From NCBI GenBank assembly GCA_044229845.1, contig JBGASG010000003.1, positions 454,518 to 518,517 on the forward strand: 64,000 nt of DNA, given 5' to 3'. The stretch comes from Candidatus Obscuribacteraceae bacterium (GTDB taxonomy: Bacteria > Cyanobacteriota > Vampirovibrionia > Obscuribacterales > Obscuribacteraceae). Positions 1,102 to 60,167 of this stretch are shown in pieces. The translations under genes and the position numbers were made by a program. Within the stretch, counting starts at the first letter, position 1. The number at the start of each line of letters is the position of its first letter. The notes beneath the pieces are model-generated. The model made no database searches. It worked only from the letters and a program-made list of their open reading frames with translations, and had not been told where the DNA came from.

Positions 1102-1125
1102 CGCGAGAAACCGACGTTTTTCGCG
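1102..1125. repeat. 24-bp palindrome copy
   Basis: CGCGAGAAAC-CGAC-GTTTTTCGCG, downstream of HNH gene. Confidence 0.85.
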
Positions 1126-1193
1126 CGTTCAGCGACAGCGGCGCAACCTGCATGCCGCAGCTGCCCCCGCTCCACAGAATATCTCAAGAAATC

Positions 1194-1688
1194 TCAGGCG
1201 CCGATCAAATATTTCGACCAGAATCCATGTCCATGCAGGGAGTGTTTCGAAATCTCGAACGAAACATGGCTTTGCGGGCGCCGCGGCGTGCACATAAGAG
1301 GCATCGCGGCTTCCTTGGGAGTACGGTCGCCTTTCTTCACGTTGCACTTCAAGCAGGCCGCGACCACGTTATCCCAGGCATCCCCACCGCCCCGGGAGCG
1401 GGGAATGATGTGGTCGATAGTCAGGTCGTGACGACGTTCGCCGCAATACTGGCACGTGTAATTATCCCGGTGCAGAACGTTGCGCCGGGATAGACTGATT
1501 TCTTTATAGGGGATTTTGACGTAGCTTCGGAGTCGGATGACTGTCGGTAGAGGGAAGTCCGCGTAAATCACTTTGCCGTTGTGCTCAATCTGTTCAGCCT
1601 TGCCTTTCATGATTAGAACAACCGCTCGACGCCAGCTGCATATGTTCAACGGTTCATATGAAGCGTTTAGAACTAAGACTTTAGACAA
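1194..1688 (-). CDS. stand-alone HNH endonuclease (McrA-like)
   Basis: VLVLNASYEPL N-terminus, RDNYTCQYCG, TIDHIIPRSRGG, NVVAACLKCNVKK; TTG start at 1688 after GAGG. Confidence 0.9.
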   Translation of the reverse strand: MSKVLVLNASYEPLNICSWRRAVVLIMKGKAEQIEHNGKVIYADFPLPTVIRLRSYVKIPYKEISLSRRNVLHRDNYTCQYCGERRHDLTIDHIIPRSRGGGDAWDNVVAACLKCNVKKGDRTPKEAAMPLMCTPRRPQSHVSFEISKHSLHGHGFWSKYLIGA

Positions 1689-1878
1689 TGTTTCCTCGCA
1701 GTATGTGCAAAGTGTTGGTTCTATCTCGGTCTGACGCTCGGCAATGGCCTGGTTGATATCGATTCGCGATACAACTTCTAACGTCATGAAGACTTGGTTT
1801 TAAGCAAATCTTCACGTTGTAACATTATAACGATCAAAGTCGGAATTTGTCTATAAATCGCGCTGGGACGGGTTTTTG

Positions 1879-1887
1879 TGCTACAAT
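1879..1887 (+). promoter_or_regulatory. putative extended -10 promoter of rpsB operon
   Basis: TGcTACAAT about 175 nt upstream of rpsB start. Confidence 0.45.
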
Positions 1888-2063
1888 GTCCGACCTGTCC
1901 CAAGACAGATTTGGGTTTTACGAAGTCCCAAAATGCCCATCGGGCGGCGTTGCAGAGAGTTGCAAACGCAGCCGGGCAGAACGTGTTTCGTTAGTTATTA
2001 CCCCGAGTTATTACCTTGATTAGTTCACCGTCGCGCATCAACACACAGGAGAGAGGAGAAACC

Positions 2064-2876
2064 TTGTCAGTAGCAACGATGAGACAACTGTTGGAGGCGG
2101 GAGTCCATTTCGGGCACCAGACACGCCGTTGGAACCCGAAAATGCGTCCATACATCTACGGTGAACGGAACGGCATTTACATCATTGACCTCGAACAAAC
2201 CCAGCGAGCGCTGGACAAAGCCTGCGATTACATGCGAAAAGCAGCCGAAAATCGCAAAAACATAGTTTTCGTCGGCACCAAGAAGCAGGCTGCCGAAATC
2301 GTTCAGGAAGAAGCAGTCCGCGCTGGAGTGCACTTCGTGAATCGTCGTTGGCTGGGCGGCATGCTCACCAACTTTGAAACCATCAAATGGCGCATGAACC
2401 GCTTGAAAGAGCTGGAGTCGATGCGCGATACCGGTGAGTTTTTCCGCCGTCCCAAGAAAGAAGTCGCCGTCCTCAACCGTGAGATGGCAAAGCTTGAGAA
2501 GTCCCTCGGCGGCATCAAGACCATGAAGGGCAAGCCTGACGTTCTGTTCATCATCGATCAAAAGCGTGAGTTGATCGCAGTCCAGGAAGCCAAGAAAGTC
2601 GGCATCGAAGTCGTCGGCATCATCGACACCAACTGCGATCCCGATGCTATCGATTACGTCATCCCCGGCAACGATGATTCGATTCGTTCAATCAAATTGA
2701 TTACGTCGAGCATCGCCAACGCCATTCTGGAAGGCAAGCAAGGTCAATCCAACGCTCCTGCCGAAGAACCGGAAGCCAAAGAAGAGCGCGAACGGCAGCT
2801 AGCCGCAGTGGCCAGTGCCGCTGGCGACGAATCCTCTGAAGGCGGCAGCGGCGAGTCGGAAGGCGAAAACGCTTAG
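2064..2876 (+). CDS. rpsB: 30S ribosomal protein S2
   Basis: [39 protein letters not shown] start after GAGGAG. Confidence 0.98.
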
Positions 2877-3074
2877 TTAAGGGATGCCGGCTGAAAGATG
2901 GCGCAGGTCATCTTATCCACCTCCTGAAATGCAGCAATTCAAAATGTAAGTGCTGGATTCAGGCGGAAAGCCTGCCCAGCGACGATTGGGCATGTTCCGA
3001 CGACTGTCGAGAACGACCGGACCAGAAATCGAACACCTGATAGAACGTGTCTGTGTAAACACAAGGAGTGCAAA

Positions 3075-3980
3075 ATGCCAGATATATCGGCAACCATGGT
3101 CAAAGACCTGAGAGAGAAGTCTGGAGCAGCCATGATGGACTGCAAGAAGGCCCTCGTGGAAGCTGACGGCAACTTCGACAAAGCCTTCGAACTGCTTCGC
3201 CAGAAGGGCATCGCCAGCGCTGCCAAGAAGCAATCACGCGCCACCTCCGAAGGCCTGGTGGTCGGCGAAGTGAGCGCTGACGGCAAGCGCGGCGCACTGG
3301 TCGAAATCAACTGCGAAACCGACTTCGTGGCACGGAACGAAGAATTCCAAGAACTGGCAAAAACTCTTGCTAAGACCGCGTTGGAATCCAAGGCGACCTC
3401 AGTGGAAGAGCTTGGCAAGGCTAAGCACGGCGGTGGAACAATCGCCGACCTGATCACTGAGAAAGTCGGCAAGATTGGCGAAAACATCGTTCTGCGTCGC
3501 ATCGCTCAGGTCGCTATCGACGGAGCCGGCACGGTCGGACTCTATGTCCATGCCCTGGGCGGCAAGATGGGCGCCATGGTCGGACTCCAGGCTGAAAAAG
3601 ACGGCAACAAAGAAGAACTGCAATCGATGGGACGCGATGTCGCCATGCATGTAGTTTCTGCCAAGCCTCAGTTCATCTCACGCGATGAAGTTCCAGCTGA
3701 TATCGTCGAGAACGAGCGCCGCATCGAACTCGGCAAGGAAGACCTTGCTAAGAAGCCGGCCGAAATTCGCGAAAAAATCGTGCAGGGACGCGTCGACAAA
3801 ATCATGTCCGAACGTTGCTTGCTCGATCAGCCGTTCGTCAAGGATCCCAACCAGACTGTCGGACAGCTCCTCAAGAGCAAGGCTGCCGAGTACGGCGCCC
3901 TGAAGCCGACCGGCTACGCGTTGTTTATCCTGGGCGAAAGCGAAGCCGCACCGTCCGCCGAAGGCAACGGACATCACTAG
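3075..3980 (+). CDS. tsf: elongation factor Ts
   Basis: VKDLREKSGAAMMDCKKAL, EINCETDFVA. Confidence 0.98.
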   Translation: MPDISATMVKDLREKSGAAMMDCKKALVEADGNFDKAFELLRQKGIASAAKKQSRATSEGLVVGEVSADGKRGALVEINCETDFVARNEEFQELAKTLAKTALESKATSVEELGKAKHGGGTIADLITEKVGKIGENIVLRRIAQVAIDGAGTVGLYVHALGGKMGAMVGLQAEKDGNKEELQSMGRDVAMHVVSAKPQFISRDEVPADIVENERRIELGKEDLAKKPAEIREKIVQGRVDKIMSERCLLDQPFVKDPNQTVGQLLKSKAAEYGALKPTGYALFILGESEAAPSAEGNGHH

Positions 3981-4023
3981 ACAGCTGAGCGGCGTTGGTC
4001 GCCAAACAGCACTAGACCTCTTA

Positions 4024-4051
4024 GAAAGGGCGTTCTCAGGAGCGCCCTTTC
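4024..4051 (+). terminator. hairpin, likely intrinsic terminator after tsf
   Basis: GAAAGGGCG...CGCCCTTTC inverted repeat followed by T-rich tract. Confidence 0.6.
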
Positions 4052-4204
4052 AGTTATTTCGTTGCTTTTCGCGCATCTGAAGCGCGCTGTAAATGTGCGG
4101 CTCGCCATAACCCTGTATGATCGTCGCCGGTCTGACAAATGGCAATTTAGGGAATGCGGACTGCCGCCTTCCATGAGGCTCGAAACCAGGAATCACGTTC
4201 TAAA

Positions 4205-4966
4205 ATGCAAAGCAAATCTACAGTCACCAATCCCGAGAAACCATCCGTGGGCGGCAGAAAGTATCAGCGCATCCTGCTTAAACTGAGCGGCGAAGCGTTA
4301 ATGGATCCGGCGAAAGGTTTTGGTATTTCTGACAAAACCATCCATCGCATAGCCGATGAGGTAGCAGCAGCGCACCGTCATGGCACCCAGATCGCGATAG
4401 TCGTAGGCGCAGGCAATATATTTCGCGGCACGCAAGGCAAGAATTTCGGCATGGACAAAGCCGCGGCAGACTACGTGGGCATGCTAGCCACGATTATCAA
4501 CTGCCTGATTCTTTCCGAAGTGCTCCAGTCGAAAGGCGTCGAAACCCGCGTGCAGACAGCAATCGCCATGCCCGCAGTCGCCGAGTCTTTTATTAGATTG
4601 CGCGCCATTCGCCACCTCCAAAAGGGGCGTGTCGTCATCTTTGGTGGCGGAACCGGTAACCCGCACGTCACCACGGATACGGCTGCCGCGCTGCGCGCTG
4701 CAGAGATCAAAGCGGATGCCGTGCTCATGGCTAAACACGGTACGGACGGCGTCTACACCGACGACCCGAACCGCAATCCGCAAGCCCAAAAGATAGAGAA
4801 GATTTCCTTCGAAGACGTCATTCGTCAGGGTCTAAAAGTGATGGACCCGGCGGCGGTATCTTTGTGTCAGCAAAACAACATTCCACTTGTGGTGTTCAAT
4901 TTTGCTGATGAAGGTTCAGTCGAGAAGATCATTCTCGGGGAAGCCATTGGAACAATAATTGAGTGA
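4205..4966 (+). CDS. pyrH: UMP kinase
   Basis: RILLKLSGEAL, GAGNIFRG, TTDTAAALRA. Confidence 0.97.
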   Translation: MQSKSTVTNPEKPSVGGRKYQRILLKLSGEALMDPAKGFGISDKTIHRIADEVAAAHRHGTQIAIVVGAGNIFRGTQGKNFGMDKAAADYVGMLATIINCLILSEVLQSKGVETRVQTAIAMPAVAESFIRLRAIRHLQKGRVVIFGGGTGNPHVTTDTAAALRAAEIKADAVLMAKHGTDGVYTDDPNRNPQAQKIEKISFEDVIRQGLKVMDPAAVSLCQQNNIPLVVFNFADEGSVEKIILGEAIGTIIE

Positions 4967-7503: not shown

Positions 7504-7527
7504 CGCGAAGTACCGACGTTTTTCGCG
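7504..7527. repeat. 24-bp palindrome copy
   Basis: CGCGAAGTAC-CGAC-GTTTTTCGCG, fills the 27-bp gap between glmS and TPR stops. Confidence 0.9.
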
Positions 7528-11823: not shown

Positions 11824-11847
11824 AGCGCAATTCGATTGTTTTTCGCG
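11824..11847. repeat. 24-bp palindrome copy (degenerate left arm)
   Basis: AGCGCAATTC-GATT-GTTTTTCGCG. Confidence 0.7.
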
Positions 11848-13375: not shown

Positions 13376-13399
13376 TGCGAAAAACGTCGGTTTATCGTT
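13376..13399. repeat. 24-bp palindrome copy
   Basis: TGCGAAAAAC-GTCG-GTTTATCGTT. Confidence 0.75.
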
Positions 13400-14578: not shown

Positions 14579-14602
14579 AGAGAAGAACTGATGTTTTTCG
14601 CG
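14579..14602. repeat. 24-bp palindrome copy
   Basis: AGAGAAGAAC-TGAT-GTTTTTCGCG. Confidence 0.8.
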
Positions 14603-15626: not shown

Positions 15627-18149
15627 CTACCTACTACGGTTCGATCTTAGCGAGCGGTGAGCAATTGCGATACGTTTGTTTGATTTTTTCGCTTTGCGTC
15701 TATTCATCGCGATCTTCGTAGGTTTTTCGCGTCCTGCCGGCTTTTTCGCGTGCAAAATTTGCGTAAAACGTTTTCCCTTTTTGGACTGGGACGCCGCCTG
15801 GGAGGTTCGTGTTCCGCTTGCGTCTGCCGTCTGAGAACTGCGCGCCGCCTGTTTTACCGAACTCATGCCGGCGGCCGTAGCCGAAGCAATACTGGCGCCT
15901 GGATTGGTTCCATGCGTTGCAACGTAGACGATAACACCCTGGGCCAAAGCTTCGGCAATCTTTTGCTGATAATCAGATGAGATTAATTTGTCTCTCTCAT
16001 CCTTATTGGAGATGAATCCCACTTCAGCGAGGATAGCCGGGTAAGGCGTGTGATTAACGACATAAAATCGCGCCGTGCGAACGTTGCGGTCAGGCACTGC
16101 CAGTTTGCCGACCAGGGACGAATGAATCGATTCTGCGAGCGGCCTGCTTTGTGGGTGCAAATAATATGTTTCTATGCCGGTTATCGAATTGTTGCTTTCC
16201 AGCGAGTTGATGTGAACGCTGACGAAGGCACTGGGGGCCGTTTCATTGGTGATTCGCACCCGCTCTTCCAGAGAAACGAATGTGTCATCAGAGCGCGTCA
16301 TCACGACTCGGGCGCCCTGCCTGCGTAGGAGCTTTCTGAGTTTTTCGCAAATCGCCAAAGTGATTTCCTTCTCCTGGATGTCACCGCGCTGAGCCCCTGG
16401 ATCGGTGCCCCCGTGACCGGCATCGATAACAATGACGCTGCCGCCGGGCAGATGGGCAGCCGGATTGAAGGCTGTAGGCATTTCTTTCGCTATATCGATA
16501 ATCAGCAAACCGTTCTCATCGCATCGCTCGCAAACCTGTATGTCTTCGCTGTTCAAATCCAGGACGATGCGTCCACAAGCGCCATCAGGGCTGCCCAGTC
16601 GAATTGTTTTGACGAAGGCATTTTCAGGGATCTCGGGCATGGTGGCACTGGACAGGTCCGCAGCGCTTTCTATATCTATGACATGGCGCTCCGGATCATG
16701 TAAGCGGAAAGTCTTCGTTTTTGGCAGTTTGCCGGACGACGACGAAACCGCCAAGCGCAAAGGAACAACGCTCACCACCTTTATCTCGGAAGAAGAGACT
16801 ATGTCAGGCGCTTGATCCGCAATATTTGCGCCTTCTTCCTCACTGACGACCTTTTCCTGAGCGGAAAGAGCGACCGATGGCGGTGGTGGTGGCGGTAAAA
16901 AGTCAGATTTCGCGCCATTACCGGCCAACGCCTTTGGCATAGTCAAGGCACCGCGTGCAGTACCGCCGCTGATCTGAGCGCCTCCGGTTCGCATATTTGG
17001 TGCGCTCTGAGGAAACTTGGAAGCGGAGCTAATCTGAACCGTCTTCTTGACGCTGGACAATCCAGGCAACATTGGCGGGTCAGCCTCTGCTACAACTTCG
17101 ACGACCTCGGTCTCGAGTTGAGGTTTTTCAATCTTGGCAGATCTGCGTTTGTCAGCGGGAGCCGTGGAGAGCGCCGGACTGGCAGCAGTCGGCGGCACCG
17201 TTGAGGAAGAATTGGTCGCGGTGCCTTTGCGCGAACCAGGCGATACGGACGAAGCTGAGGGGGGAACCGACGGAGCCACATGAACCAGGGACGGTGAGGC
17301 GGACGCAGGCTCGGCAATTGGTCCGCGCAGTACTGGTTTGTTTGGATCGACCAGCTTTTTCACTTCGACTTTCGCCTGACCGGCGGCCGCAGTAGTGATC
17401 CGGGACACACTGGCCGCTTGTGGCGCCGGCGCGGGCAGTGCCTGACCGTCGACCTGAAGGTCCAACAGCAGTCCACCGGAAGGCATAGGAGGCAAACTGG
17501 ATCTGTTGTTTCCAGTCGTCACGCTCGCAGTTCGCTGGACAGGAACCGTCGGTATCGAACCATTAGCCACTGAGGCACGCTGCGGCGCAAAGCGGGGTAT
17601 CGTCGACGTCGAGGACATGGTCGGCGGAGCGGCGGCGATCGCGCCGACGGGAGTCAATCTCGGAACCATGCCGTTGCCAGTATCAAAGCCGGCGGAGGGG
17701 AGCTTTACAGTCAGAGTTCCAGATGACGATGATGCGAATTCGACTCTCTTGAAAACGCGCATCGATGGCGCGGATAAAACTAGACGAAATATTGCGGGTC
17801 GGTCCTGAACTTGGGCGATGCGCACTTTCTGAATGCCGCCGCCGGTCGGGTAGATGATTCGCGACGCCTGACCAAAATTGAGACCAACGAAGTCAGCAAC
17901 CATGACAGCTTCGCCATTGTCGCCCGGGTAGAACCGCACCGCTGGCGGCGGCAATGCTGATTGCCCGCTGGTATTTATGATCAACGCCGATGGGCTCTCG
18001 ACGACCGACGTTACCTCTCGGTCGCGTACTCCTGTCGTTTTTCGCCCGCTATATGATGACGCTGACTGAGCCATTGCATGCGGTGCAACGGATAGCCACG
18101 ATATTAAAAACAGAGCGGTTAGCGCTAGGGGGCGGACATACCGCCTCAT
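15627..18149 (-). CDS. N-acetylmuramoyl-L-alanine amidase (AMIN domains + Amidase_3) with long low-complexity linker and basic tail
   Basis: Signal peptide; IDAGHGGTDPGA, EKEITL, SVHIN, LAEVGFISN. Confidence 0.92.
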   Translation of the reverse strand: MRRYVRPLALTALFLISWLSVAPHAMAQSASSYSGRKTTGVRDREVTSVVESPSALIINTSGQSALPPPAVRFYPGDNGEAVMVADFVGLNFGQASRIIYPTGGGIQKVRIAQVQDRPAIFRLVLSAPSMRVFKRVEFASSSSGTLTVKLPSAGFDTGNGMVPRLTPVGAIAAAPPTMSSTSTIPRFAPQRASVANGSIPTVPVQRTASVTTGNNRSSLPPMPSGGLLLDLQVDGQALPAPAPQAASVSRITTAAAGQAKVEVKKLVDPNKPVLRGPIAEPASASPSLVHVAPSVPPSASSVSPGSRKGTATNSSSTVPPTAASPALSTAPADKRRSAKIEKPQLETEVVEVVAEADPPMLPGLSSVKKTVQISSASKFPQSAPNMRTGGAQISGGTARGALTMPKALAGNGAKSDFLPPPPPPSVALSAQEKVVSEEEGANIADQAPDIVSSSEIKVVSVVPLRLAVSSSSGKLPKTKTFRLHDPERHVIDIESAADLSSATMPEIPENAFVKTIRLGSPDGACGRIVLDLNSEDIQVCERCDENGLLIIDIAKEMPTAFNPAAHLPGGSVIVIDAGHGGTDPGAQRGDIQEKEITLAICEKLRKLLRRQGARVVMTRSDDTFVSLEERVRITNETAPSAFVSVHINSLESNNSITGIETYYLHPQSRPLAESIHSSLVGKLAVPDRNVRTARFYVVNHTPYPAILAEVGFISNKDERDKLISSDYQQKIAEALAQGVIVYVATHGTNPGASIASATAAGMSSVKQAARSSQTADASGTRTSQAASQSKKGKRFTQILHAKKPAGREKPTKIAMNRRKAKKSNKRIAIAHRSLRSNRSR
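15708..15731. repeat. 24-bp palindrome copy inside amidase 3' end
   Basis: CGCGATCTTC-GTAG-GTTTTTCGCG. Confidence 0.65.
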
Positions 18150-20545: not shown

Positions 20546-21025
20546 ATGCAGATCCGCGCTGGCAACAGGCAGGACGAAGACAAGATTCGCACGATTATTT
20601 TCAACGCCATGAAAGAGTGCGGTCTTGAGCCTGAGCCGGAAGGACGCGAGGACGACCTGAAAAACATCGAAGCCGGCTACTTCTGGCACGACGGTATTTT
20701 TGTCGTTGCCGAGCGAGAAGGAGAAATCATCGGCGTCGCCGGTGGCCGCAGAAATCCCGACACCGAGGGCGATGCGGAACTGGAATTGATCAGGCTTGCC
20801 GTTCTTCCATCAGAAAGAAAGCATAACGTGGCTCGCCAGCTGCTGGACACGATTATGTTCTTCGCCGGCAATTCAGAATATGAGCGGGTGATTCTGCGGA
20901 CAAAAGCGAAGGTCATACCCGGAGTACTGGAGAAACTCGGATTCAATGTAGACAAAAGCCGCGCCGGCGATGCGGTGCCTGTATATACTCAACCGGTCGC
21001 AGCGCGCGCCAGTTGCCGGAAGTAG
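20546..21025 (+). CDS. GNAT family N-acetyltransferase
   Basis: FVVAEREGEIIG, ELIRLAVLPSERKHNVARQLL, KLGF. Confidence 0.8.
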   Translation: MQIRAGNRQDEDKIRTIIFNAMKECGLEPEPEGREDDLKNIEAGYFWHDGIFVVAEREGEIIGVAGGRRNPDTEGDAELELIRLAVLPSERKHNVARQLLDTIMFFAGNSEYERVILRTKAKVIPGVLEKLGFNVDKSRAGDAVPVYTQPVAARASCRK

Positions 21026-21801
21026 AAGGGCCAAGCAGTCGGTTCGCGTACAACCAACTTCGATAGATCGTCGCAAAAGTCTTGATAGTCTTTGTCGACT
21101 GTCGCCACCGCTGATGCCAGTTGCGCTTGTTTCGCCAGATAGGGTTCGTATTCGCTGGTGCGCTTGGCACGTTTCTCATCGGGCTTACGGTGCGGCTTTT
21201 CTTCCCTTGTCGCAAGATCCAGCAGAGAAATCATCCAGCCTGGAAGAAGCGACGTTCGGCTGCGCATCTCCTCCTTTTCCTTGCGTCCGAACCATTGCAC
21301 CATTTTTTGCGCGAGTCCATTGTCTTTTAGCAGCGCTTGCCCGCTTTTCCAGATGGCGCGGAGCGTCTCACCGACTACCGAGTTACCCAGATGCAATCGC
21401 GAATCAGCGACCTTTCTAAAAATCACTCGTCCTCGACAAGTCATGAAGCTCGAGCTTGAACTAGATACTGCAAATTCAACGCCTTTGATGGGCTTCTGTT
21501 CAATTCCGAATGCTTGCGCCAACTCGCGCCCTGAGGATCTGATTGTTTTGCCGAACGCTTCCGCCTTGACGTTCGCGATTTCCCCTAACGACGGCCAAGA
21601 TGTTTTGGCTTTCGAAAAACCGAACGTCTTTCTATACACACCGCGCGCCACTCGAATGACGAATTCCAAGTCGACCAGACGGCGCATTATCTGATCGATA
21701 GTCGAACGCTTGCCCAACGAAAGCAGCGATTTCGTAGCGAACACTTTTCCTTCAGGCATCTTCGCAACCGCACGTTTCACACGGCTCATGGTTTGGCCCA
21801 T
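20989..21801 (-). CDS. DUF6088 / AbiEi-like winged-helix protein
   Basis: GKVFATKSLLSLGKRSTIDQIMRRLV...IRVARGVY; strong AGGAGG RBS. Confidence 0.7.
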   Translation of the reverse strand: MGQTMSRVKRAVAKMPEGKVFATKSLLSLGKRSTIDQIMRRLVDLEFVIRVARGVYRKTFGFSKAKTSWPSLGEIANVKAEAFGKTIRSSGRELAQAFGIEQKPIKGVEFAVSSSSSSFMTCRGRVIFRKVADSRLHLGNSVVGETLRAIWKSGQALLKDNGLAQKMVQWFGRKEKEEMRSRTSLLPGWMISLLDLATREEKPHRKPDEKRAKRTSEYEPYLAKQAQLASAVATVDKDYQDFCDDLSKLVVREPTAWPFYFRQLARAATG

Positions 21802-21926
21802 CTTTCTTCCTCCTACGTGGAGAGCTATATCTCTTAAACGTAGGACGACGGCAAAAAGTTCAATCCAAATCGTGATCTGTGGATTAATTCGATGTGGCGC
21901 CGGCTCTGGCTCCGAATTTCACAACT

Positions 21927-21950
21927 AGCGAAAAACACTAGAAGTTCGCC
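21927..21950. repeat. 24-bp palindrome copy
   Basis: AGCGAAAAAC-ACTA-GAAGTTCGCC. Confidence 0.65.
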
Positions 21951-21989: not shown

Positions 21990-22019
21990 AAAAAACCGGG
22001 ACATAAGTCCCGGTTTTTT
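21990..22019 (-). terminator. intrinsic terminator of ftsZ (bidirectional form)
   Basis: AAAAAACCGGGAC-ATAA-GTCCCGGTTTTTT. Confidence 0.9.
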
Positions 22020-22057
22020 GAGTTTAGTTTGCGATACGCAATTTGCGAGTGCGCTTT

Positions 22058-24556: not shown

Positions 24557-24580
24557 CGCGATAAACAACGGTATTTCGCG
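24557..24580. repeat. 24-bp palindrome copy (divergent gap)
   Basis: CGCGATAAAC-AACG-GTATTTCGCG. Confidence 0.85.
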
Positions 24581-26107: not shown

Positions 26108-26131
26108 CGCGAAAAACGACAATTCTTCGCG
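26108..26131. repeat. 24-bp palindrome copy
   Basis: CGCGAAAAAC-GACA-ATTCTTCGCG. Confidence 0.9.
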
Positions 26132-29140: not shown

Positions 29141-29164
29141 CGCGAAAAACTTCTGTTTCTCGCG
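29141..29164. repeat. 24-bp palindrome copy
   Basis: CGCGAAAAAC-TTCT-GTTTCTCGCG. Confidence 0.9.
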
Positions 29165-31652: not shown

Positions 31653-31676
31653 CACGCAAACCGTTGGTGTTTCGCG
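31653..31676. repeat. 24-bp palindrome copy (degenerate)
   Basis: CACGCAAACC-GTTG-GTGTTTCGCG. Confidence 0.6.
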
Positions 31677-31726: not shown

Positions 31727-31750
31727 CGCGTAGTTCCGACGGTTTTCGCG
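31727..31750. repeat. 24-bp palindrome copy
   Basis: CGCGTAGTTC-CGAC-GGTTTTCGCG. Confidence 0.75.
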
Positions 31751-34199: not shown

Positions 34200-37100
34200 C
34201 TATTTTTCAATGGTTGAAGAAGGCTCAACCCGCTCTTCAAAGAGTTGGGAGCCATCCTCAGTAAGGAGCGCGACGCGAGCCAGGCGCCAGTCCGCGGATT
34301 CACAGAGAAGCTTGAGTATGTCCGTTGGCTTCACGTGCATGCGAGGTCCGTGCGCAATAACCAGCTCCACCACAGGTGGTGGTAGCGTCGTCGGGTCAGT
34401 ATCGTTTGTTGTCTTTTCATCTAATACTTGAATGGCGAAGATGCCAGGGCGAATGTCACGCACGGCAGGCTTTTCGCTGCTATCCGCATCATTCGTCCGC
34501 GCTTTCTTGCCACTTGAACTTTTCTTACCTTTGCCGGGGGCAACAGCCACCTCGATGCAATCGTGCGTAAGCAGTTCAGAAACTTTCTTGCGTAGTTCAT
34601 CGGCACTTACCTCAGCCGCCGGAGCAGATGGCGTCTGGATCGAGGCTCGATAAACGGCTTTGCTGACCGCACCTTCAAGCGATCCGCTTTTTCTTTCAAC
34701 TGGTCGTGCACGCATGATTTGAATTTCCGGCGGCAATTGCCGGTTCATGCGTTCAACGAATTCTTCGGCAGTAAGTGGATCGCACAGGTCCACTTCGCCG
34801 ACTTCCGCAAGTCCTTCGCAGTACAGCGATAACGACAGCGCCAGATTCAACTTCGGGCTGGGATTAAAGCCCTCGGTGTACGCCAGATTGATTCTGGCTC
34901 GGCGCGCTGCCCGCTGGAATAAGTGCAACAGGTCGAGATGGCCGATAAACTTCAATTCGGCGATTTTTTGAAACTCGAACCTGAGCCTGGTTGCCGCCTG
35001 CGTTGGCGGCGGCGGTGGCGGTTCCGAAACAAACAGCGAGGGATGGCTGTCGTCTTCATCCGTCACCACAGTGACATTCAATTCTTTGACGAAAGGATTT
35101 TTCTTCATCACCTCTGGATTGGGTTTCGCCAGAGCATGCGTAGTATCAAGTTCGGTGCACACGCCACAGGCGTGGCAGGTATTTTCCGTACAGTTGCCGG
35201 TTTCTTTTTCGGCAATTGCCTTCTTCCACTCGTTCACCAGCCACCAGTCCATGAGCCCGATGTGCACTACATCCCAGGGCTGGCGCGAGCCGACTTCCCG
35301 ATCTTCACAGGAGAGAGCTTCGAGCGTGGTGCCCTGCTGCTGCGCCATCTGGTGCCAAACCTTCGCCTGAAAGCGTTCGTCCCAGGCATCGAAAACCGCG
35401 CCGGCTCTGTAGGCATCCAGTATCATGCGACCGACCAGATGTCGATCGCCGCGAGAAATGACCGACTCCAGAAGCGAAATTTCCGGATGGGTGAAATTAA
35501 TTTGTACGTTGCGCAGGCGCGACTCTTTCAAGCATTCTCGCAGATACGCTTGCCGACGCGCGATTTCCGCAGGTTTTACCTGTGCAAACCACTGGAACGG
35601 CGTGAAAGGCTTCGGTACGAAATTCGATAACGTGCAGGTTACTTCCAGATCTTTTTTGGGAGCTGTGGCGGGATTTTCGCGGCGAATCTGGCGACACTTT
35701 TCAGTGGCCTCTTTCAAGATATCGATGATGCCTTGCAAATCGGCATCCTCTTCGGTGGGCAATCCCATCATGAAATAGAGTTTGACGCCCGGCCAGCCGG
35801 ATGCGTACGCAGCGGTGATGGCATTGATAATTTGTTCGTGCCGCAAACCTTTGTTGATCACAGCGCGCAGGCGCTCCGTGCCGGCCTCCGGTGCCAGCGT
35901 GATACCACTTTTGCGCACCGCCTTCAGTTCATCGGCCACATCGAAGTTCATGCGGTCGGCGCGCTGGCTGGGAAACGACATCGACGCTCGCCGACTGGTG
36001 TGCTCGCGATTGAGGGCGCGAACGCTTTCATGCAAAGTCGTGTAGTCGCTAACGCACAACGATAGTAGCGAATACTCCTGATAGCCACTCTGGTCAAGTG
36101 CCTGCTTGCTCAAGTCGAGCAGGTCTTTGGTAGACCTCTCGCGCACCGGCAAAAATGTATAGCCGGGTTGGCAGAAGCGGCAGCCGCGATCGCAACCGCG
36201 CCGTACTTCCAGGACCTGCCGATCATGAACGGTAGCCAAATAGGGCACGATGCCCTGGGTCGGCTGATTCTCATTATTCAGTGGTTCTACCTGGCGCAAA
36301 ACGCGCGCGGGCAACCCTTCGAAGCGGGGCACTGGCTGCGGCTGGTCCGTCAAGACCTCGTAGAGGCTGGGCACGTAGACGCCCGGCACCTCGGTTGCCA
36401 ACCGCATCAACAACTCATCTCGCAAATTCTGTCGTTTTTCGCGCGTTGAGTCGTCGAGCGAGCCGGCGCCCTGTCGAGCAGCCGCCGCGTCCAATTCCGC
36501 CAGCAAATCCGCATGTTGTCGCTTAAATGCTGCCACCGCATCCATCACCGCCGGCACTGCACTCTCACCATCTCCAATGATGAAGAAATCCATGAAAAGT
36601 GCCATCGGCTCCGGATTAACCGATGCCGGTCCGCCGCCAAAGATGAGCGGAAATATGTTCGTGCGCTCCGACTGCAGGAGCGGAACGCCTGACATATCCA
36701 GAATATTCAGGACATTGGTGTAGGTCAGTTCGTACGCCAGCGAGAAACCCAATAGCTCGAATGCCGTAATCGGTTGTCGACTTTCCCAGCCCCAGAGAGG
36801 CAGCTGACGCGCCCGGACCAGCTCTTCCATATCGGATGCCAGAGCGTAAGTGCGGTCGGCCATCAGGTGCGGCCGCGAGTTAACCAGCTGATAAAGAATT
36901 CGCAACCCAAAGTTGGACATGCCCAGTTCGTACAAATCAGGAAACGCCAGACAGAGCCTGGCTTCCGCCTGCCCGAAGTCTTTGTTTTGCGCACCCCACT
37001 CATTGCCCAGATACTGTCCGGGACGGTTGACGAGGTACAGCAGCTCATCGGTGAGCAGGCGCGAGAAAGTGTCTAGGCTTTCGCGACTTGACTCTGTGGT

Positions 37101-38635: not shown

Positions 38636-38659
38636 CGCGAAAAACGTCAGCGATTCGCA
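38636..38659. repeat. 24-bp palindrome copy
   Basis: CGCGAAAAAC-GTCA-GCGATTCGCA. Confidence 0.8.
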
Positions 38660-41102: not shown

Positions 41103-41126
41103 CGCGAAAAAGCGCAGGACATCGCG
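41103..41126. repeat. 24-bp palindrome copy
   Basis: CGCGAAAAAG-CGCA-GGACATCGCG. Confidence 0.75.
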
Positions 41127-44410: not shown

Positions 44411-44434
44411 CGCGATAAACGTCAGTCTTTCGCG
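44411..44434. repeat. 24-bp palindrome copy
   Basis: CGCGATAAAC-GTCA-GTCTTTCGCG, 1 bp from permease stop. Confidence 0.85.
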
Positions 44435-46073: not shown

Positions 46074-49000
46074 TGACTTTAACCTCTACCTTGTGCGCAC
46101 CAGAGTCGATCTTGACGTTGTTGGCGACCAGTGTTGCGGACAAGGAATCGATTGTTTGCGGAGCAAAACTGAAGGCGTACGGATCGCCGTCATCGATCTT
46201 GAAGGTTGCATTCGCAATGGCTGTTCGCTTGTCTTTTCCGGTGACCTTCAATTCTAGCGTGCCATCCTTGGTGCGCTTACATGTGATGAGTTCGATTTCA
46301 GGGGCGCTGTTATCAACAATCACGGACCGCAGATTTATCACCTGCTGGCTGTCATTCGGACTCGACAAGCGATCGTCGAGCACGAACTTCAGAATGTAGT
46401 CGCCGTCTTTCTGTTTACCGGTATCCCAGGAATAGGTGAATGACTCATTAGCATTCGAGTTGTCAGATGATGAGGACGAGCTGGAACTGCTCGAAGACGA
46501 AGAAGAGTCTTTTTTAGCCGACGCGGAAGTAGAAATTACAACACCGCCCCTTCAACAATGATGGTGCCGCCGTCTTCGCTAGGGGTCCCTCAGCCTTGTC
46601 GTTCTTGTCTTTGTCCTTGCTTTCTTTGTCTTTGTACTTGTAGCGAGAGTTGCCGTCTTTGTCTTTAGGTCCATCCTTGTTCTTGTCCTTGTCCTTATCC
46701 TTATCCTTGTCCTTATCTTCGTCGTCGGACGGCGCATCCTGCAGGCGGCGCCCGAACCATGAACGCTTAGCATGCCTCGATCGCAGTGCACCACCGCCGG
46801 TGCCGTTTCGGTTAGCACTGGATTTGTTGCTGTCCGCCTTGGCGGCACCAGACCCGCTGGCTCCCGCCTTGTCCTTGTCGGATTTGTCTCCGTCGGATTT
46901 GTCTCCGTCGGATTTGTCGCCGTCGGATTTGTCGCCGCCAGATTTATCGCCGGATTTATCCGAATCGGCGGTGCCTGAGCCTGATTTTTCTTTGTCGGCA
47001 TCCTTCTCGTCTTTGTCTGACTTGTCGGCAGACTTGTCTTTATCCGCACCGGAGTTGCTCGTCGAGCCTTTCAATGGACTGACAGTACCGGATATCGGTT
47101 TGCCCTTCGCCTTCCCCTTCTTGCCGCCGTCCGCGGCTTTGGTGCCATCTTTGTCCTTGTCTTTGGATGAGGAAGAACGGCTGTTTTTCGCGCGCAGATT
47201 CGTCGTCAGCGGCTGCCAGGTCTTGCCATCATCCGCCGAGATTTCAATAGAAGCAACCAAGTTATCTCCGTCGCTGTCAGTACCGCTCATATTCAAATCC
47301 TGCTTGCCTGACACCGCCGTCCCGGCTTTCAAAGAAATGGAAGCGAACTGCGGCGTCGAACCTCTCGGCATGTATGCCACATCAATCCGTCCAATCGTCA
47401 GCGACGCAAAACTGGAGGCATCGCTCTTGTCGGAGCGACTGGGCCACGAAAGGCGAAACTGGAAATATCGACCTTCTGGTGACTGCACTGTGAAAGCATC
47501 TTCCTTCGCGACAGCGCCTTGCCAGGCAGACCATGTTTCATCAGGCTTGGAGGTTTCGCCCGTGCGCGTTTCTACTTTTACGTTCTGCACAATGTATGTC
47601 GATGCTTCATTGAAAGCTCCGAACGGTCGCACCGAAGACCACTGCGCCGGACGACCCGCATCTTTGACCACAGAAATGAAACTTGGGTCTTTAGCCTGTT
47701 CCATGGCAAAACTCTTCAACACGGCAAGATTGGATGTACCGGCAAACAGATTTTTGTTGTGGGAAGAAACCAGCAATACTGCCTCTTGTTCTGTGTGGCT
47801 GACAGGCATGAAGTAAGGCTGTCTCGTCACCGGCTCTATACGCGCCATGGTGATGTCGCCCTCCGCGTCTCCCGAAAAAACAGAGTCCGTGGTTGGGTCG
47901 TAGTGCAGTGTGTAGAACGCTTCGCTGGAGGCCAGGGTCTGCGCCTCACCCGATGGCAGCACGCGCACCAGGTGTCCCTGCCCGGCGGTGGCTACATAAA
48001 GATCGCCCTTTTTGTCGCGCACGACTCCGGTCACCAGGTGATCCGGCGACTGGAACACCGCCGATGCTTTTCCCGAATTGGGATCGACGCGATAAACAGA
48101 ACCTTTTTCGCCGGTGCCGACATACAGCGAACGATCGGCTGCGCAGTAGAACATCGAAAGAATGTGAGCCTGTCCTGAATCGAAAAACATCGTCGGCTTG
48201 GCTGCGGTCGCCTGCGGGTCGACTTTATAGAGGCGCCCTGTACCGGCGACGCCAATGAACAAATTGCCTGCATCGTCGGTTGCGAGAGCCGTGACAAGGG
48301 GCTCGGTAGGTTTGAACACCTGGCGAGGCTTGCTGCCTGGACGGGTAGTATCAATGGCGAACACCCGCCCTGTCGGCACAGTAGCCACGTATACAATGCC
48401 TTTTGAAGCCGCCATTGACGGTATCATCACTGAATCAAAACGCGCCACCGGTTCAGGCGACGAACTGTCGCCCTTCCAACGCAGAACTTGATCGGAAGTT
48501 GCGAAATACAGATATTCTCCGCTCCATACTCCAGACCAGATTTTCATCTCCGGAGCGATGGCGATTTCAGCCTTGCTCTCAAAGCCCGGATTCAGCCGTC
48601 CCCAGCTGTCTACAGTCGCCCCTTCCAACTTGCCGGCGCGATATTCATCTTCGCTTTCCTGACGCCACAACTGTATCGGTCGCATGTGCGGGTATTCTTT
48701 ACCGACCAGAGGAATAGATTGGGATGCTCCACGACTGGCTCCCGACTGCGCACCGGACGAACCGGATGAGGAAGAAGTGGAGCCCTTCTTGCCCGGGTAC
48801 GACTCCATGGTCTTGCGAGCCAGATCAGTGATTGCAACATCCTCGCCGCCCGAGGGCGCAGAAACGGAATAGGGCAGGGCGCGGGCTGCGGCTTTATCAG
48901 GGTTGCGCACCTCAACGGTGATGATGTGAGTTCCGTTCAGCAACCACTGCGTGTTCTTTGCCGCGTGCAATTCACCGCGAATAATGCTTGGTCCGCGGGT

Positions 49001-52738: not shown

Positions 52739-52762
52739 CGCGAAAAACAGCAGTTCTTCGCG
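52739..52762. repeat. 24-bp palindrome copy
   Basis: CGCGAAAAAC-AGCA-GTTCTTCGCG. Confidence 0.9.
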
Positions 52763-54573: not shown

Positions 54574-54597
54574 CGCTATTTGCAGTAGTTTTTCGCG
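54574..54597. repeat. 24-bp palindrome copy
   Basis: CGCTATTTGC-AGTA-GTTTTTCGCG, in the 34-bp convergent gap. Confidence 0.75.
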
Positions 54598-56073: not shown

Positions 56074-56097
56074 CGCGAAAATCTTTTGTACTTCGCG
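56074..56097. repeat. 24-bp palindrome copy
   Basis: CGCGAAAATC-TTTT-GTACTTCGCG. Confidence 0.85.
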
Positions 56098-56130: not shown

Positions 56131-56892
56131 CTAAGTCGAGATGTCGACAGCTGAGTAGGTTTCATCGTAGCCGCACAGCCAGTTTGAGGCGCGATGACGT
56201 TCGCTGACTATGGCGTTGCAGATATGGCGTTCATCATCATGCGCGCACGCGATTCCCTGCTCGCGAATCGCCAGGTCACCGTCGATCAGCCTTGCCGCAC
56301 CCAGGTTGAGTTCGCCAAAGCGGGAGTTTTTCGCAATTTTGACGAAATCGATTGTCTGCCGATCGATCGCGTGGAAGTAATTCAATCGCCAGTGAATCGC
56401 AAACATCTGATCCGCAAACACATCGATTTCCCCCCCGTCGCGCAGTTTGGCCTTTTCCACCAGCTGCTTAGCCTTGGGATCTAGAAATCGAACAACTTCT
56501 CGCACATCTCCAACGTGAGCGGGCTCGTCATATGGTGGCAGTTTCTCATACAATCCAAGCGCCCAGGCAAGCGCCGCCACAGCCTCAATGCGCCACGCAG
56601 CGTCAATGTCGATGGGCGGTTCCAGCGTCCCCACCGGCTCCTGCAAGAGGTCCACCTCTGCCGGCTCCAATTCGTCCCAGATGTCCAGTCGATCCAGCCA
56701 CGTGAGAATGTCCAGCCGCGCGCTATCCGAACCTTCCTGGTCGGAGTAAGGCTCCAGCAGCCCACGGGCGGCGACCGCCATCAGCGCCAGCATGCGGCGG
56801 GCGACACGGTCAGCCGGTGGCGCGTCGTCGTTGATGGGTGTGGGCTCGTCGATTAAATCAGGTTCCGGGGGCACAGCCATGCTCGAAATCAT
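56131..56892 (-). CDS. DUF4272 family protein
   Basis: WRIEAVAALAWALG, HW, ERHRASNWL. Confidence 0.75.
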   Translation of the reverse strand: MISSMAVPPEPDLIDEPTPINDDAPPADRVARRMLALMAVAARGLLEPYSDQEGSDSARLDILTWLDRLDIWDELEPAEVDLLQEPVGTLEPPIDIDAAWRIEAVAALAWALGLYEKLPPYDEPAHVGDVREVVRFLDPKAKQLVEKAKLRDGGEIDVFADQMFAIHWRLNYFHAIDRQTIDFVKIAKNSRFGELNLGAARLIDGDLAIREQGIACAHDDERHICNAIVSERHRASNWLCGYDETYSAVDIST

Positions 56893-57044
56893 CTCGTTTC
56901 AGACGGTCTTTTGCAAGCGTACGTGATATCATTTTCGCCAATTCAGTTCCAATCATTTGAATTTATGAGTCTTTTGTTGCAGCTGCTCTCTGGAGCGGCC
57001 GCGTTTTTGTGCCTGTATCCAGGCAGGCAGGAGGGTTTGTTTTT

Positions 57045-58553
57045 ATGAGTGCAACGCTGGCAGCGCCCCGCGCGAAAGTCGATACCAAGTGGCAACTGTA
57101 CATCGCCGGCGCTTGGGAAGACGGAGCGTCACAACGCACCTTGATTAACCCGGGAACGGGCGAAGAACTTTGCAAGGTGCCGGAAGCCTCGGTTCAGCAA
57201 GTTGAAAAGGCGATTAAAGCCGCTCGCAAGGCCTTCGATGAAGGCACGTGGCGCAACACCACCAACGCAGAACGCGCCACCTTCCTCTACAAGGTCGCCG
57301 ACAAGATCGATGAACATGCCGAAGAACTGGCAGAATTGGAAACCCTGAACGCCGGCAAACCGTTGCGTGAAGCCAAGTATGACGTAGCCGATTCGGCCAA
57401 CTGCTTCCGCTATTATGCCGGACTGATCACCAAGCCAACCGGACAGACAATGGATGTTCCAGCTCCTTCGGTAAGCATGGTCGTCCGCGAGCCGGTCGGC
57501 GTCTGCGCGCAAATCATTCCGTGGAACTATCCTTTATTGATGGCTGCCTGGAAACTGGCACCAGCACTGGCTGCCGGCAATGCCTGCATCCTCAAGCCGA
57601 GCGAATTGACACCGCTCACCGCCCTGCGCCTGGTTCAACTTATTCATGAACTGGACGTGCTTCCGAAAGGCGTCCTCAGCGTCGTCTGCGGCGACGGCAA
57701 AGCCGGAGTACCGCTAGCCGAAAGCGATCTGGTCGACAAAGTTGCTTTCACCGGCAGCGTGCCCACCGGCAAACGCGTCGCGCAAGCCGCATTGGGCAAC
57801 TTGAAAAAAGTAACTCTGGAACTGGGCGGCAAATCCCCGATGATCGTCTTTGATGACGTCGATGTAGACACAGCCGTCGATTACGCTCTCTTTGCCATCT
57901 ACTGCAACGCCGGTCAAGTTTGCTCCGCCGGTTCGCGTTTCGTCGTCAATGAAAAATTGCACGATGAATTCGTGAAGAAACTCGTAGCACGCGCGAAAAA
58001 AATCAAGATTGGCTACGGCTTCGATGACGAAGCAGAAATGGGTCCGCTCGTCAGCGAAGCCCAACTGAAGCGCGTCGAAGAGTTTGTAGAAATCGGCAAA
58101 AAAGAAGGCGCCAAATTGGAATGCGGCGGCAACCGTCCGCAAGATGCGAAGCTCAAGAAAGGTTTCTACCTCGAGCCCACCGTCTTCTCCAATGTGAAAC
58201 CGGACATGCGCATCGTCCAGGAAGAAATCTTTGGACCGGTGTGCGTGGTGCAAAAGTTCAAGACCGAGGAAGAAGCCATCAAGTTGGCCAATGACACTAC
58301 TTTCGGTTTGGCAGGCGCCGTCTTCACCAAGGATGTCACCCGCGCCTACCGGGTGGTCAAGGCGATTCGCGCCGGCATCACCTGGATCAACGGCTACCAC
58401 TCGACCTACAACGAGTGCCCGTGGGGCGGCTACAAGCAGAGCGGCTGGGGCCGCGAGCTGGGCACCTTCGGTCTGGATGCCTACACCGAAGTGAAGCAAA
58501 TCAACCTCAACCTCGATCCTAATCCGGTCGGCTGGTTCGAGAAGCGCGACTAG
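57045..58553 (+). CDS. NAD-dependent aldehyde dehydrogenase (betaine/aminoaldehyde type)
   Basis: PWNYP, FTGS, LELGGKSP, GQVCSAG, EEIFGP. Confidence 0.95.
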   Translation: MSATLAAPRAKVDTKWQLYIAGAWEDGASQRTLINPGTGEELCKVPEASVQQVEKAIKAARKAFDEGTWRNTTNAERATFLYKVADKIDEHAEELAELETLNAGKPLREAKYDVADSANCFRYYAGLITKPTGQTMDVPAPSVSMVVREPVGVCAQIIPWNYPLLMAAWKLAPALAAGNACILKPSELTPLTALRLVQLIHELDVLPKGVLSVVCGDGKAGVPLAESDLVDKVAFTGSVPTGKRVAQAALGNLKKVTLELGGKSPMIVFDDVDVDTAVDYALFAIYCNAGQVCSAGSRFVVNEKLHDEFVKKLVARAKKIKIGYGFDDEAEMGPLVSEAQLKRVEEFVEIGKKEGAKLECGGNRPQDAKLKKGFYLEPTVFSNVKPDMRIVQEEIFGPVCVVQKFKTEEEAIKLANDTTFGLAGAVFTKDVTRAYRVVKAIRAGITWINGYHSTYNECPWGGYKQSGWGRELGTFGLDAYTEVKQINLNLDPNPVGWFEKRD

Positions 58554-58656
58554 TTGAATGCAGCACCGGGCGTGGTGGCTGACACCATGCTCGGTGGCAC
58601 TGCGCGTCATCTCGCAGCAAAGTGCTTTGTGCATCCGCTGCATATACACAGTTTTC

Positions 58657-58685
58657 AACCCGCGCTTCCCATAAGCGCGGGTTTT
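58657..58685 (+). terminator. intrinsic terminator after aldehyde dehydrogenase
   Basis: AACCCGCGCTT-CCCAT-AAGCGCGGGTTTT. Confidence 0.8.
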
Positions 58686-58743
58686 AACTAACTGGGCGCG
58701 GAATCATCTATAATCCCACGATATTTCGGAGGACTTCTCGACC

Positions 58744-59412
58744 ATGAAACGCTCGCCCTGCCTCTCCACCGCTATTGCCGTCGCCGTCGCAGCGATTTGC
58801 AGTCTGGGGAGCGCCAGCTCTGCTCTCGCCGACGGCAGCAAGACCGGCGCCGCACCCGGTGCGCCGACCACCGTCGAAGAAGTCAAAATGCCCGATCCGG
58901 TCAAGGAAAAGCTGCGCGCTTCGATCGCCAGGTCGATGCAAAAGATGGCCGATTTCAAGCAGGGATCGTTCTCGATGAAGTATCCGTCCAACTGGCGCAA
59001 GGGCGGCGCTTGCGAGCCGGGGCAGATCATGATGTTTCAAACTGAACAGGGATTGGTCAGCGTGATCGTCGGCGTGCAGAAAATCACCGATAAAGACACC
59101 CTGGAAGCTTACAATCAGGCGCGCGTCGACGGTCTCAAGAAGGCTCTGGGCGCCAAGATGACCGTTCTCTCCAACAGTCCGTTGAGCGTCAAGGGCGCCA
59201 AAGCGATGCAGCTCACTTATCGAGGCGACATCGACCAGGACGGCAAACTATTCAAAATGCGCCAGCAGCAAATTCTCGCACTCAATGGTGATACCGCATA
59301 TAATGCGCAGTTCAACGCACCGGATGAAATGTTCAATGACTTTCAGCAGGTGTTCAACGCCATGATCGATTCGATGGTGATCGCCGACAGCAAAGAAGCC
59401 AGTTCGCGGTGA
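58744..59412 (+). CDS. exported PsbP/DcrB-fold protein
   Basis: FSMKYPSNW motif, C-terminal F..MIDS. Confidence 0.7.
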   Translation: MKRSPCLSTAIAVAVAAICSLGSASSALADGSKTGAAPGAPTTVEEVKMPDPVKEKLRASIARSMQKMADFKQGSFSMKYPSNWRKGGACEPGQIMMFQTEQGLVSVIVGVQKITDKDTLEAYNQARVDGLKKALGAKMTVLSNSPLSVKGAKAMQLTYRGDIDQDGKLFKMRQQQILALNGDTAYNAQFNAPDEMFNDFQQVFNAMIDSMVIADSKEASSR

Positions 59413-60086
59413 CCGCCAAAAACAACGGAACATCCACAGTCGGCAAGCAACCTCCGCCGCAGAATGTCCGCATCGTGGGCGCGGTTTTGATTGGTGCCGC
59501 AGCGCTTGCGGCCTTGTGTTTCTTCCTCAATCCAAACGCAGACAAATCTCCTAAATCGCAATCGCCAGCCGCGCAGGTAGCACAAAAGATTGTCGTCGCG
59601 CGACAAAAGGTTCATGAAGCCGCAGTGGAATCGATGAACAGCGGTATGCAGGAGTTTCGTCGCGGCGACTTCACGATCAGCTATCCGAAAAATTGGCAAA
59701 CTGAAGAGGTCAACATCGCATCGGCCCAAATGTTTCGTGCCGGCACCCTCGGTGGCATCGCAAACGTGACTGTCACCACCTCCAAAGCCGACGAGAAGGA
59801 CCTGGAGTCCTGGACGAAAACCACGATCAGCAACTTGAAGTACGTGGCCGGACCTGACGCTTCCCTGTTGTCCGTAAAACCGATCGCGTTGAACAACAGC
59901 AAAGGCAATCAAATCATCTTCGAAGCGCAGCCGGAGGGTGTCGCATCGCGCGTCAAACAACAATTGATCCTGGTGGCAAAAAGAGGCACCGGCTACACAA
60001 TCGCACTTTCGACTCCGGTGCAGTATTACCCTGAATTCGAGAAGTTGTTTCAGACTATCGTCGCATCGATCAAGGTCGGCGAATAG
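59409..60086 (+). CDS. membrane-anchored PsbP/DcrB-fold protein, paralog of previous gene
   Basis: FTISYPKNW motif, C-terminal FQTIVASI; GTGA overlap. Confidence 0.7.
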   Translation: MTAKNNGTSTVGKQPPPQNVRIVGAVLIGAAALAALCFFLNPNADKSPKSQSPAAQVAQKIVVARQKVHEAAVESMNSGMQEFRRGDFTISYPKNWQTEEVNIASAQMFRAGTLGGIANVTVTTSKADEKDLESWTKTTISNLKYVAGPDASLLSVKPIALNNSKGNQIIFEAQPEGVASRVKQQLILVAKRGTGYTIALSTPVQYYPEFEKLFQTIVASIKVGE

Positions 60087-60143
60087 GCGCCTGTGGCGCT
60101 CGTGATAGAATTCGCACCGCCGTCATGAGAGCTTGAATCGATG

Positions 60144-60167
60144 CGCGAAAAACAGCAGTTCATCGCG
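60144..60167. repeat. 24-bp palindrome copy
   Basis: CGCGAAAAAC-AGCA-GTTCATCGCG. Confidence 0.88.

Follow-up and report, generated by a model that had tools for sequence, protein, structure and literature searches.

The 64,000-nucleotide stretch analysed here (the window) covers positions 454,518 to 518,517 of contig JBGASG010000003.1 in assembly GCA_044229845.1 of a Candidatus Obscuribacteraceae bacterium. It contains 22 copies of a 24-bp palindromic motif and a gene for a protein of the DUF6088 family. The motif is probably the operator of this local DUF6088 regulator, copied over a short range and retained where a copy is harmless and bound. In other words, the binding site of a regulator likely multiplies around the regulator's own gene in these bacteria, as judged from comparisons of sequences. 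The window forms the end of contig C18 in its genome (G000; 5.16 Mb, 22 contigs, 88% complete). A second genome of the same genus, G001, served as the comparison reference, and the family comparison set comprised 104 genomes. G000 and G001 are collinear, which rules out an inversion between them with breakpoints at motif copies. The features of the window are as follows; the strand given for a motif copy is the side of its strong arm.

20989..21801, minus strand: DUF6088 (PF19570) gene for a 270-aa AbiEi-like winged-helix protein, the likely binder, at the centre of the cloud of copies
21836..21863, minus strand: promoter-like element TTGAACTTTTT..ACGT, common to the gene family (putative function)
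21927..21950, plus strand: motif copy, the likely operator, 126 bp upstream of the DUF6088 start
21990..22019, no strand: hairpin resembling an ordinary intrinsic terminator, with A/T tails, located between ftsZ and the operator copy and distinct from the motif
1102..1125, minus strand: motif copy, tandem junction
7504..7527, minus strand: motif copy filling the convergent gap after glmS
11824..11847, minus strand: motif copy, tandem junction
13376..13399, plus strand: motif copy, convergent junction
14579..14602, minus strand: motif copy after the glutamate racemase gene
15708..15731, minus strand: weak copy within an amidase gene
24557..24580, plus strand: motif copy, divergent junction
26108..26131, plus strand: motif copy before uvrA, tandem junction
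29141..29164, plus strand: motif copy after uvrA
31653..31676, minus strand: weak copy, first of a pair, convergent junction
31727..31750, minus strand: weak copy, second of the pair
36420..36443, minus strand: weak copy within a radical SAM gene
38636..38659, plus strand: motif copy filling a convergent gap
41103..41126, plus strand: motif copy, convergent junction
44411..44434, plus strand: motif copy, tandem junction
47169..47192, minus strand: weak copy within a gene of 1467 aa
51783..51806, minus strand: motif copy, tandem junction
52739..52762, plus strand: motif copy, convergent junction
54574..54597, minus strand: weak copy filling a convergent gap
56074..56097, plus strand: motif copy, tandem junction
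60144..60167, plus strand: motif copy in an 893-bp stretch missing from G001

The copies were first listed in a sequence-only reading of the window, and they are real. The motif is present at all 22 coordinates, and eleven window copies lie within three mismatches of the consensus versus none in 100 shuffles. A position weight matrix built from 39 G000 sites and used with a cut-off of at least 16 bits finds 73 sites in the genome, including all 22 window copies, versus 4 in an order-5 Markov control of equal length. The genome-wide scan proposed in the earlier reading therefore gave an excess, and the excess is regional: 58 of the 73 sites fall within one 600-kb stretch (the domain) whose peak lies in the window. 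Likewise, the spacing of about one copy per 3 kb described there holds within the window and not beyond it, since the regional cloud has its summit inside the window. The ends of contigs C18 and C14 share a 140-bp overlap, and G001 connects C14 to C8. On the resulting scaffold, the mode of site density (982-986 kb) and the median (987 kb) fall within ~10-14 kb of the DUF6088 gene at 996 kb. Site density per 100 kb is 32, 26, 15, 6, 4, and 1.3 at distances of 0-25, 25-50, 50-100, 100-150, 150-200, and 200-350 kb from the gene, and 44 of the 73 genome sites lie no more than 100 kb from it.

The anatomy of the motif is that of a site with two half-sites at a fixed distance. In G000, 39 consensus matches with up to three mismatches have a spacer of 4, versus at most three at any other spacer from 0 to 15. 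The partner arms of 37 perfect half-sites in the domain show 2.9 mismatches at spacer 4 versus 5.6-8.4 at nine other spacers. An oriented site consists of ACRCGCGAAAAAC, four loose bases, and a weaker mirror arm that retains TCGCG. Mismatches are confined to one arm in 11 of 13, 8 of 10, and 5 of 8 sites with two, three, and four mismatches (p 0.007, 1e-4, and 2e-4), and only one of the 58 domain copies is a perfect palindrome. Both the fixed spacing and the pairing of one good arm with a degenerate one, as first described, are thus borne out. No compensatory pairs occur at broken positions among the 58 domain copies, as expected of a double-stranded DNA site. The copies show no orientation to transcription (27 with the strong arm first, 23 with the weak arm first) or to the replication fork (28 versus 30). 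No flanking sequence common to the copies was found, which indicates that the unit is the 30-bp dyad alone.

Gene context in the window was scored on simple gene calls of our own. Three of the 22 window copies lie in coding sequence and 19 are intergenic; 18 of the latter come after a stop codon, and a copy is present at 7 of 9 convergent junctions, so that both earlier counts were reproduced. In the core of the domain, a copy is present at 13 of 22 convergent, 20 of 78 tandem, and 3 of 37 divergent junctions (13/22 convergent versus 23/115 others, p 4e-4).

Evidence of selection on the copies comes from the comparison with G001. At 37 intergenic sites, substitutions per base amount to 0.024 in the strong arm and 0.032 in the weak-arm TCGCG, versus 0.142 in the spacer, 0.097 in the middle of the weak arm, and 0.097 in the flanks. 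The strong arm changes more slowly than the flanks (p 3.5e-7; p 0.014 against half the flank rate). Judged by these rates, purifying selection acts on the CGCG boxes and the strong arm and spares the spacer. The substitution pattern, the uncompensated mismatches, and the lack of orientation to transcription argue for a double-stranded DNA site of a protein rather than an RNA hairpin. A site for a dimeric or paired protein had been suggested at the outset, and that part stands: selection on the arms and a cognate candidate support it as well. The candidates named for it then (a nucleoid organiser, a terminator factor, a topoisomerase recruiter, or an uptake signal) are not the first choice on this evidence, and the regional distribution excludes an uptake signal or a general terminator.

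The motif is narrowly distributed. Across 185,579 species genomes its exact 27-base form was found 3 times, each time in the same Candidatus Obscuribacterales bacterium assembly, in a search from which records near the window genome were possibly excluded. Its 22-base core is frequent in only seven of the 104 family genomes: G000 (31), G001 (34), G102 (21), G108 (12), G010 (8), G111 (7), and G109 (5). The motif has no match in Rfam, and the searched literature, which held few subscription journals and no supplements, contained no account of it or of gene-centred clouds of sites.

What protein could bind these sites? The gene at the centre of the cloud encodes a protein assigned to PF19570, with a predicted N-terminal winged helix and AbiEi-type C-terminal domain. 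In a predicted model (predicted local distance difference test score 75.6), the top four Foldseek matches were Rv2827c (1zel) and AbiEi (6y8q), with E values of 2e-3 to 9e-3 and probabilities of 0.97-0.99. The structural alignment with AbiEi covers 165 residues with modest scores (Z 6.6, root-mean-square deviation 5.7), and a sequence search of the PDB gave no match. Among 38 aligned homologs, R28, D32, R46, G50, K75, F115, and W185 are invariant and no conserved catalytic cluster is present; the protein appears to lack a catalytic centre. In the available parts of two sources, DUF6088 is described as a distant AbiEi relative (10.1101/2023.11.17.566018) and is listed as an AbiEii partner in a marine survey (PMC12654330). 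A nucleotidyltransferase (AbiEii) toxin gene is not in the same operon, as the next gene is a convergent GNAT acetyltransferase gene; no search for AbiEii was made beyond this locus. A metagenome scan for loci of close homologs found none. RNA contigs of two studies cover ftsZ and end at 22051 and 22053, short of the DUF6088 gene.

Further evidence that the upstream copy is an operator comes from the DUF6088 family as a whole. Homologs are present in 93 of the 104 family genomes, with 1 to 34 copies each. A dyad of the GAAAAAC-N4-GTTTTTC type occurs within 330 bp upstream of 36 of 88 distinct homologs versus 0 of 300 control genes. A GAAC-type promoter-like motif lies upstream of 70 of the 88, and the TTGAACTTTTT..CGT element before most DUF6088 genes is one that we take to resemble promoters of extracytoplasmic function (ECF) sigma factors. 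The dyad and the protein also covary. In 48 gene-dyad pairs, relatives among them not being independent and one row with a misread helix having been dropped, the base pair just outside GAAAAAC is G-C in all 10 cases with a basic residue at position 9 of the recognition helix and A-T in 35 of the 38 with another residue. The window protein has Arg at this position and its site has C at the matching base. A narrower rule, in which Arg at position 9 means C, failed on one gene (G103:C63, Arg with G) and was widened to a basic residue and a G-C pair. The upstream dyad is thus likely the operator of DUF6088 proteins, with its outer base read by the recognition helix, to the extent that such covariation can tell. 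The operator reading of the window motif rests on the upstream copy, the centre of the cloud, the family-wide upstream dyad, the covariation of base and residue, and the precedent of AbiEi and Rv2827c.

Relatives display operators at several stages of multiplication. G010 has 18 exact dyads, of which four are DUF6088 operators; among the 14 orphans, 8 are found no more than 40 kb from one of the four, where 0.9 would be expected (p 8e-7), and those near the C7 gene have a spacer identical to that of the gene. The same genome contains at least 14 dispersed units of ~820 bp (loci L163-L182), 93-99% alike, each running from an upstream dyad through a promoter and a DUF6088 open reading frame (ORF) to its stop codon. 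Neither a transposase nor terminal repeats were seen in these units, and the DUF6088 gene in them looks mobile on this sequence evidence. In G102 and G013, dyads occur as doublets 130-160 bp apart on many contigs, some before a DUF6088 gene; some pairs in G013 carry the promoter without the gene. Ten genomes of genus g48 were compared at a gap that follows an ATP synthase gamma-like gene: this orthologous gap is occupied by dyads of the ACAGCG type in 4 of them, by dyads of the TGAGGG type in 3, and by none in 3. Both types also precede DUF6088 genes, ACAGCG in G102 and G108 and TGAGGG in 4 of 5 genomes. Such arrays, units, and filled or empty gaps show, as far as genome comparison can, that operators do get copied. 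An array of ten tandem 84-bp dyad units directly upstream of a DUF6088 gene in G063 (L149, C1:2961078-2961939) could pass for a CRISPR-like array.

A second family of genes repeats the pattern. When words restricted to one region were sought, a GATATC-centred palindrome emerged, with 87 hits versus at most 11 for other centres, each variant of which occupies one region. These palindromes were considered as DUF6088 operators and rejected; they belong to a family with an IS1595-like zinc ribbon and a DprA-type winged helix. Five G000 paralogs of that family are present, one per GATATC cluster (C3:200643, C8:370147, C10:1010, C18:75524, and C6:254328), and four of the five have the local variant directly upstream. 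No fewer than 69 of 81 GATATC sites lie within 100 kb of one of the five paralogs, versus 17% expected. The match of the N-terminus to the IS1595 zinc ribbon is weak (E 0.017), and the family has no DDE match. A homolog lies in the GATATC cluster of G007, 4 of the 5 regions retrieved around such sites from other genera (G041, G042, G016, and G014) contained the gene, and the palindrome occurs in 65 of the 104 family genomes. On the scaffold the two palindrome families are nearly separate, and neither is seen on a 1.7-Mb scaffold. An unrelated second family thus independently repeats the gene-centred cloud with paralog-specific palindromes. A longer local repeat, seen as hundreds of clustered k-mers, occupies C8 ~50-300 kb from 447000 downwards (scaffold B, 450-700 kb), partly beside GATATC sites.

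How might such a cloud arise? Two protein monomers would read the 13-bp arms across the 4-bp spacer, as AbiEi does on inverted repeats before its own gene. With a protein that appears to be non-catalytic, copying would be left to host repair or template switching near protein-bound sites; this is suggested by the lack of a RAYT (a REP-associated tyrosine transposase, where REP stands for repetitive extragenic palindrome) in six genomes, the association of RAYTs elsewhere with other repeats, and IS605 ends unrelated to the motif. Copies would step outwards from a founder copy and persist mostly away from promoters, at gene 3' ends and in convergent gaps, where the survivors may act as protein sinks or transcription roadblocks. 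The information content of the site and the shared spacers in G010 favour copying over independent point mutation.

Several observations weigh against this account. The copying step, putative in the motif family of the window, is its weakest link. No target duplication or inverted flank extension was found at the copies, and sequence distance is flat with chromosomal distance, with no isolation by distance (Mantel r -0.08, p 0.85). Only two copies are specific to G001, and they lie inside indels of 64 and 126 bp that may be deletions in G000. The DUF6088 gene's own copy is weak, scoring 22 bits in G000 versus 35 bits at the orthologous place in G001. With eight paralogs in the genome, the chance that one falls within 15 kb of the mode is ~5% by our own arithmetic. 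Upstream of five other G000 paralogs lies a tandem array in which a different dyad is repeated 3-6 times, with almost no stray copies elsewhere, and one paralog has no dyad. The ten-copy operator array of G063 is accompanied by no excess over the control elsewhere (47 versus 51), and in G102 and G013 the copies are scattered over many contigs, as pairs. These cases show that the wide cloud is the exception, as most paralogs are without one. The family-wide count of 36 also calls for caution, because the dyad falls below threshold at 52 of the 88 homologs, the dyad score includes the core of the window motif, and related homologs are not independent; the DUF6088 tree is a quick one with an unresolved backbone.

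Four other explanations were weighed against the copied operator. The cloud could be a selected chromosome-domain address, in which the protein bridges or compacts 300-600 kb around its own gene and paralogs of the two families tile a part of the chromosome like several MatP/matS systems. The cloud centres at 384, 996, and 1396 kb on one 1.47-Mb scaffold barely overlap, as this idea would have it, and the sites are under selection, fixed in spacing, and free in orientation, with 11 of 58 domain copies in coding sequence; furthermore, a ParB domain (PF02195) had no match in any of six family genomes searched. However, the 1.7-Mb scaffold is without such a cluster, most relatives have no cloud or only arrays, unlike what a needed organiser would show, and the site is limited to a few genera in a domain linked to neither ori nor ter. 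A chromosome-domain address is therefore unlikely as the explanation. An address at the origin or terminus itself, in the manner of parS, ram, or matS, is hardly credible. The bell-shaped domain of ~600 kb is rich in core genes, and oriC was not directly placed, as neither assembly of the genus contains dnaA or dnaN. A genuine loss of dnaA there was rejected because dnaN is absent as well, which places oriC in an assembly gap. But the GC skew keeps a single sign through the peak, where C8, C14, and C18 join without a gap, and in relatives dnaA lies where the skew switches. Skew and contig order from G001, on which the placement is based, indicate that the cloud likely lies mid-replichore, with the terminus in C22 and the peak at least ~1 Mb from either arm end. 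An origin or terminus marker was rejected on these grounds, and no link of the motif to oriC or ter was found.

The motif could instead be a REP-like or miniature inverted-repeat transposable element moved by a nearby nuclease or transposase (a RAYT, an IS605 TnpA, or a gene in an assembly gap), with DUF6088 only supplying or borrowing the recognition. The REP-like alternative had been named early on and describes the placement of the copies well, at 3' ends and convergent junctions; the doublets of G102 and G013, the units of G010, the location of all three intact IS605 TnpA genes of G000 within the domain, and the incomplete assembly of that genome also fit. Nevertheless, no RAYT, flanked by the motif or otherwise, was found in G000 or G001, where only IS605 TnpA turned up, or in G010, G102, G013, or G007 (assemblies 88-94% complete), and where other g48 genomes do have RAYTs, the repeats beside them are unrelated. 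IS605 ends were tried as a source of the motif and rejected, as they and the TTGAC target are unrelated to it. There is no GTAG or CGTC tetranucleotide tag at copy ends (oriented copies start ACRC), compensatory pairs are lacking, and the covariation implicates the winged helix. Movement by such an enzyme is accordingly improbable. An RNA hairpin that ends or stabilises transcripts would suit the position of the window copies after stop codons and the several that fill a whole convergent gap. Against it stand the regional distribution, the lack of strand preference, the uncompensated mismatches, the near absence of perfect palindromes, and the lack of an Rfam match; moreover, ftsZ has a terminator-like hairpin of its own before copy 21927. 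A hairpin function is very improbable.

The copied operator shares parts with known systems, as described in the available portions of the sources. AbiEi and Rv2827c are autoregulatory antitoxins that bind inverted repeats before their own genes (PMC7319586), and the two-domain winged-helix fold and the inverted repeat before the own gene are common to both cases. Here, however, no co-oriented toxin gene is present, the arms are 13 bp with a spacer of 4 versus 23 bp with 3 or 13, and the site is multiplied ~58-fold over 600 kb. REP doublets known as REPINs are reported to be randomly spread in extragenic space and RAYT-associated (PMC3116915), and REPs carry a GTAG or CGTC tag (PMC3733652). 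They resemble the present motif as short intergenic palindromes at gene 3' ends with a partner gene beside a repeat, doublets in some genomes, and lineage-specific variants at one locus. They differ in that the sites here form a gradient around the partner gene, although the G102 and G013 doublets look dispersed, and in that the partner, a winged-helix protein, has no conserved catalytic residues, a RAYT was not found, and the tag is missing. The 23 matS sites in the Ter region (PMC3116907) are likewise palindromic, confined to a region of several hundred kb, and found as a region-specific word. The present sites, in contrast, are not at ter or ori, are centred on the gene of their own binder, form several clouds of differing sequence per genome, and are not conserved in the family. 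No system among those compared, in the portions available, joins a non-catalytic binder with a gradient of sites around its own gene. Taken by itself, the binding-site part adds a new member to a known kind, and the gene-centred gradient matched no known system in the searched literature.

Domesticated transposases offer another comparison. SETMAR with Made1 and FHY3/FAR1 are DNA-binding proteins derived from transposases whose sites are relic miniature elements. This origin would fit the zinc-ribbon family with its IS1595-like N-terminus, whereas DUF6088 shows no transposase ancestry. Unlike such relics, the site variants are paralog-specific and local, which suggests that they spread after the paralogs had diverged.

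We tentatively propose, with more doubt than attaches to the operator itself, that Obscuribacterales harbour a new semi-selfish regulatory element. In this element the operator of a non-catalytic binder would be copied nearby by host machinery, forming a gradient over hundreds of kb, in two unrelated folds and with sequences that are each paralog's own. If so, the chromosome would be painted with self-addressed domains, which might serve as region-specific organisers in a lineage without ParB. Families of short palindromic repeats would here be paired with non-catalytic regulators, not transposases, and DUF6088 would have its first predicted DNA target, together with part of a recognition code. 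With six gene-centred clouds present in one genome, it becomes testable how palindromes multiply without a RAYT and how region-specific sites like matS originate, since the stages (tandem array, 40-kb cloud, 600-kb cloud, and dispersed doublets) are visible.

Minor observations concern mobile and variable sequences near the copies. A stand-alone HNH endonuclease gene at 1194-1787 (minus strand) adjoins copy 1102; it was considered as a mobiliser and set aside, as tblastn found no paralog in the genome and it gained no further support. The three intact IS605-type copies of G000, with a TTGAC target, lie at C14:111638-113400, C14:172377-174139, and C8:29230-30994, all inside the domain, and two of them are absent from G001. 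The 893-bp stretch at ~60090-60985 that is missing from G001 also contains an ORF weakly matching the N-terminus of BamA, directly before bamA.

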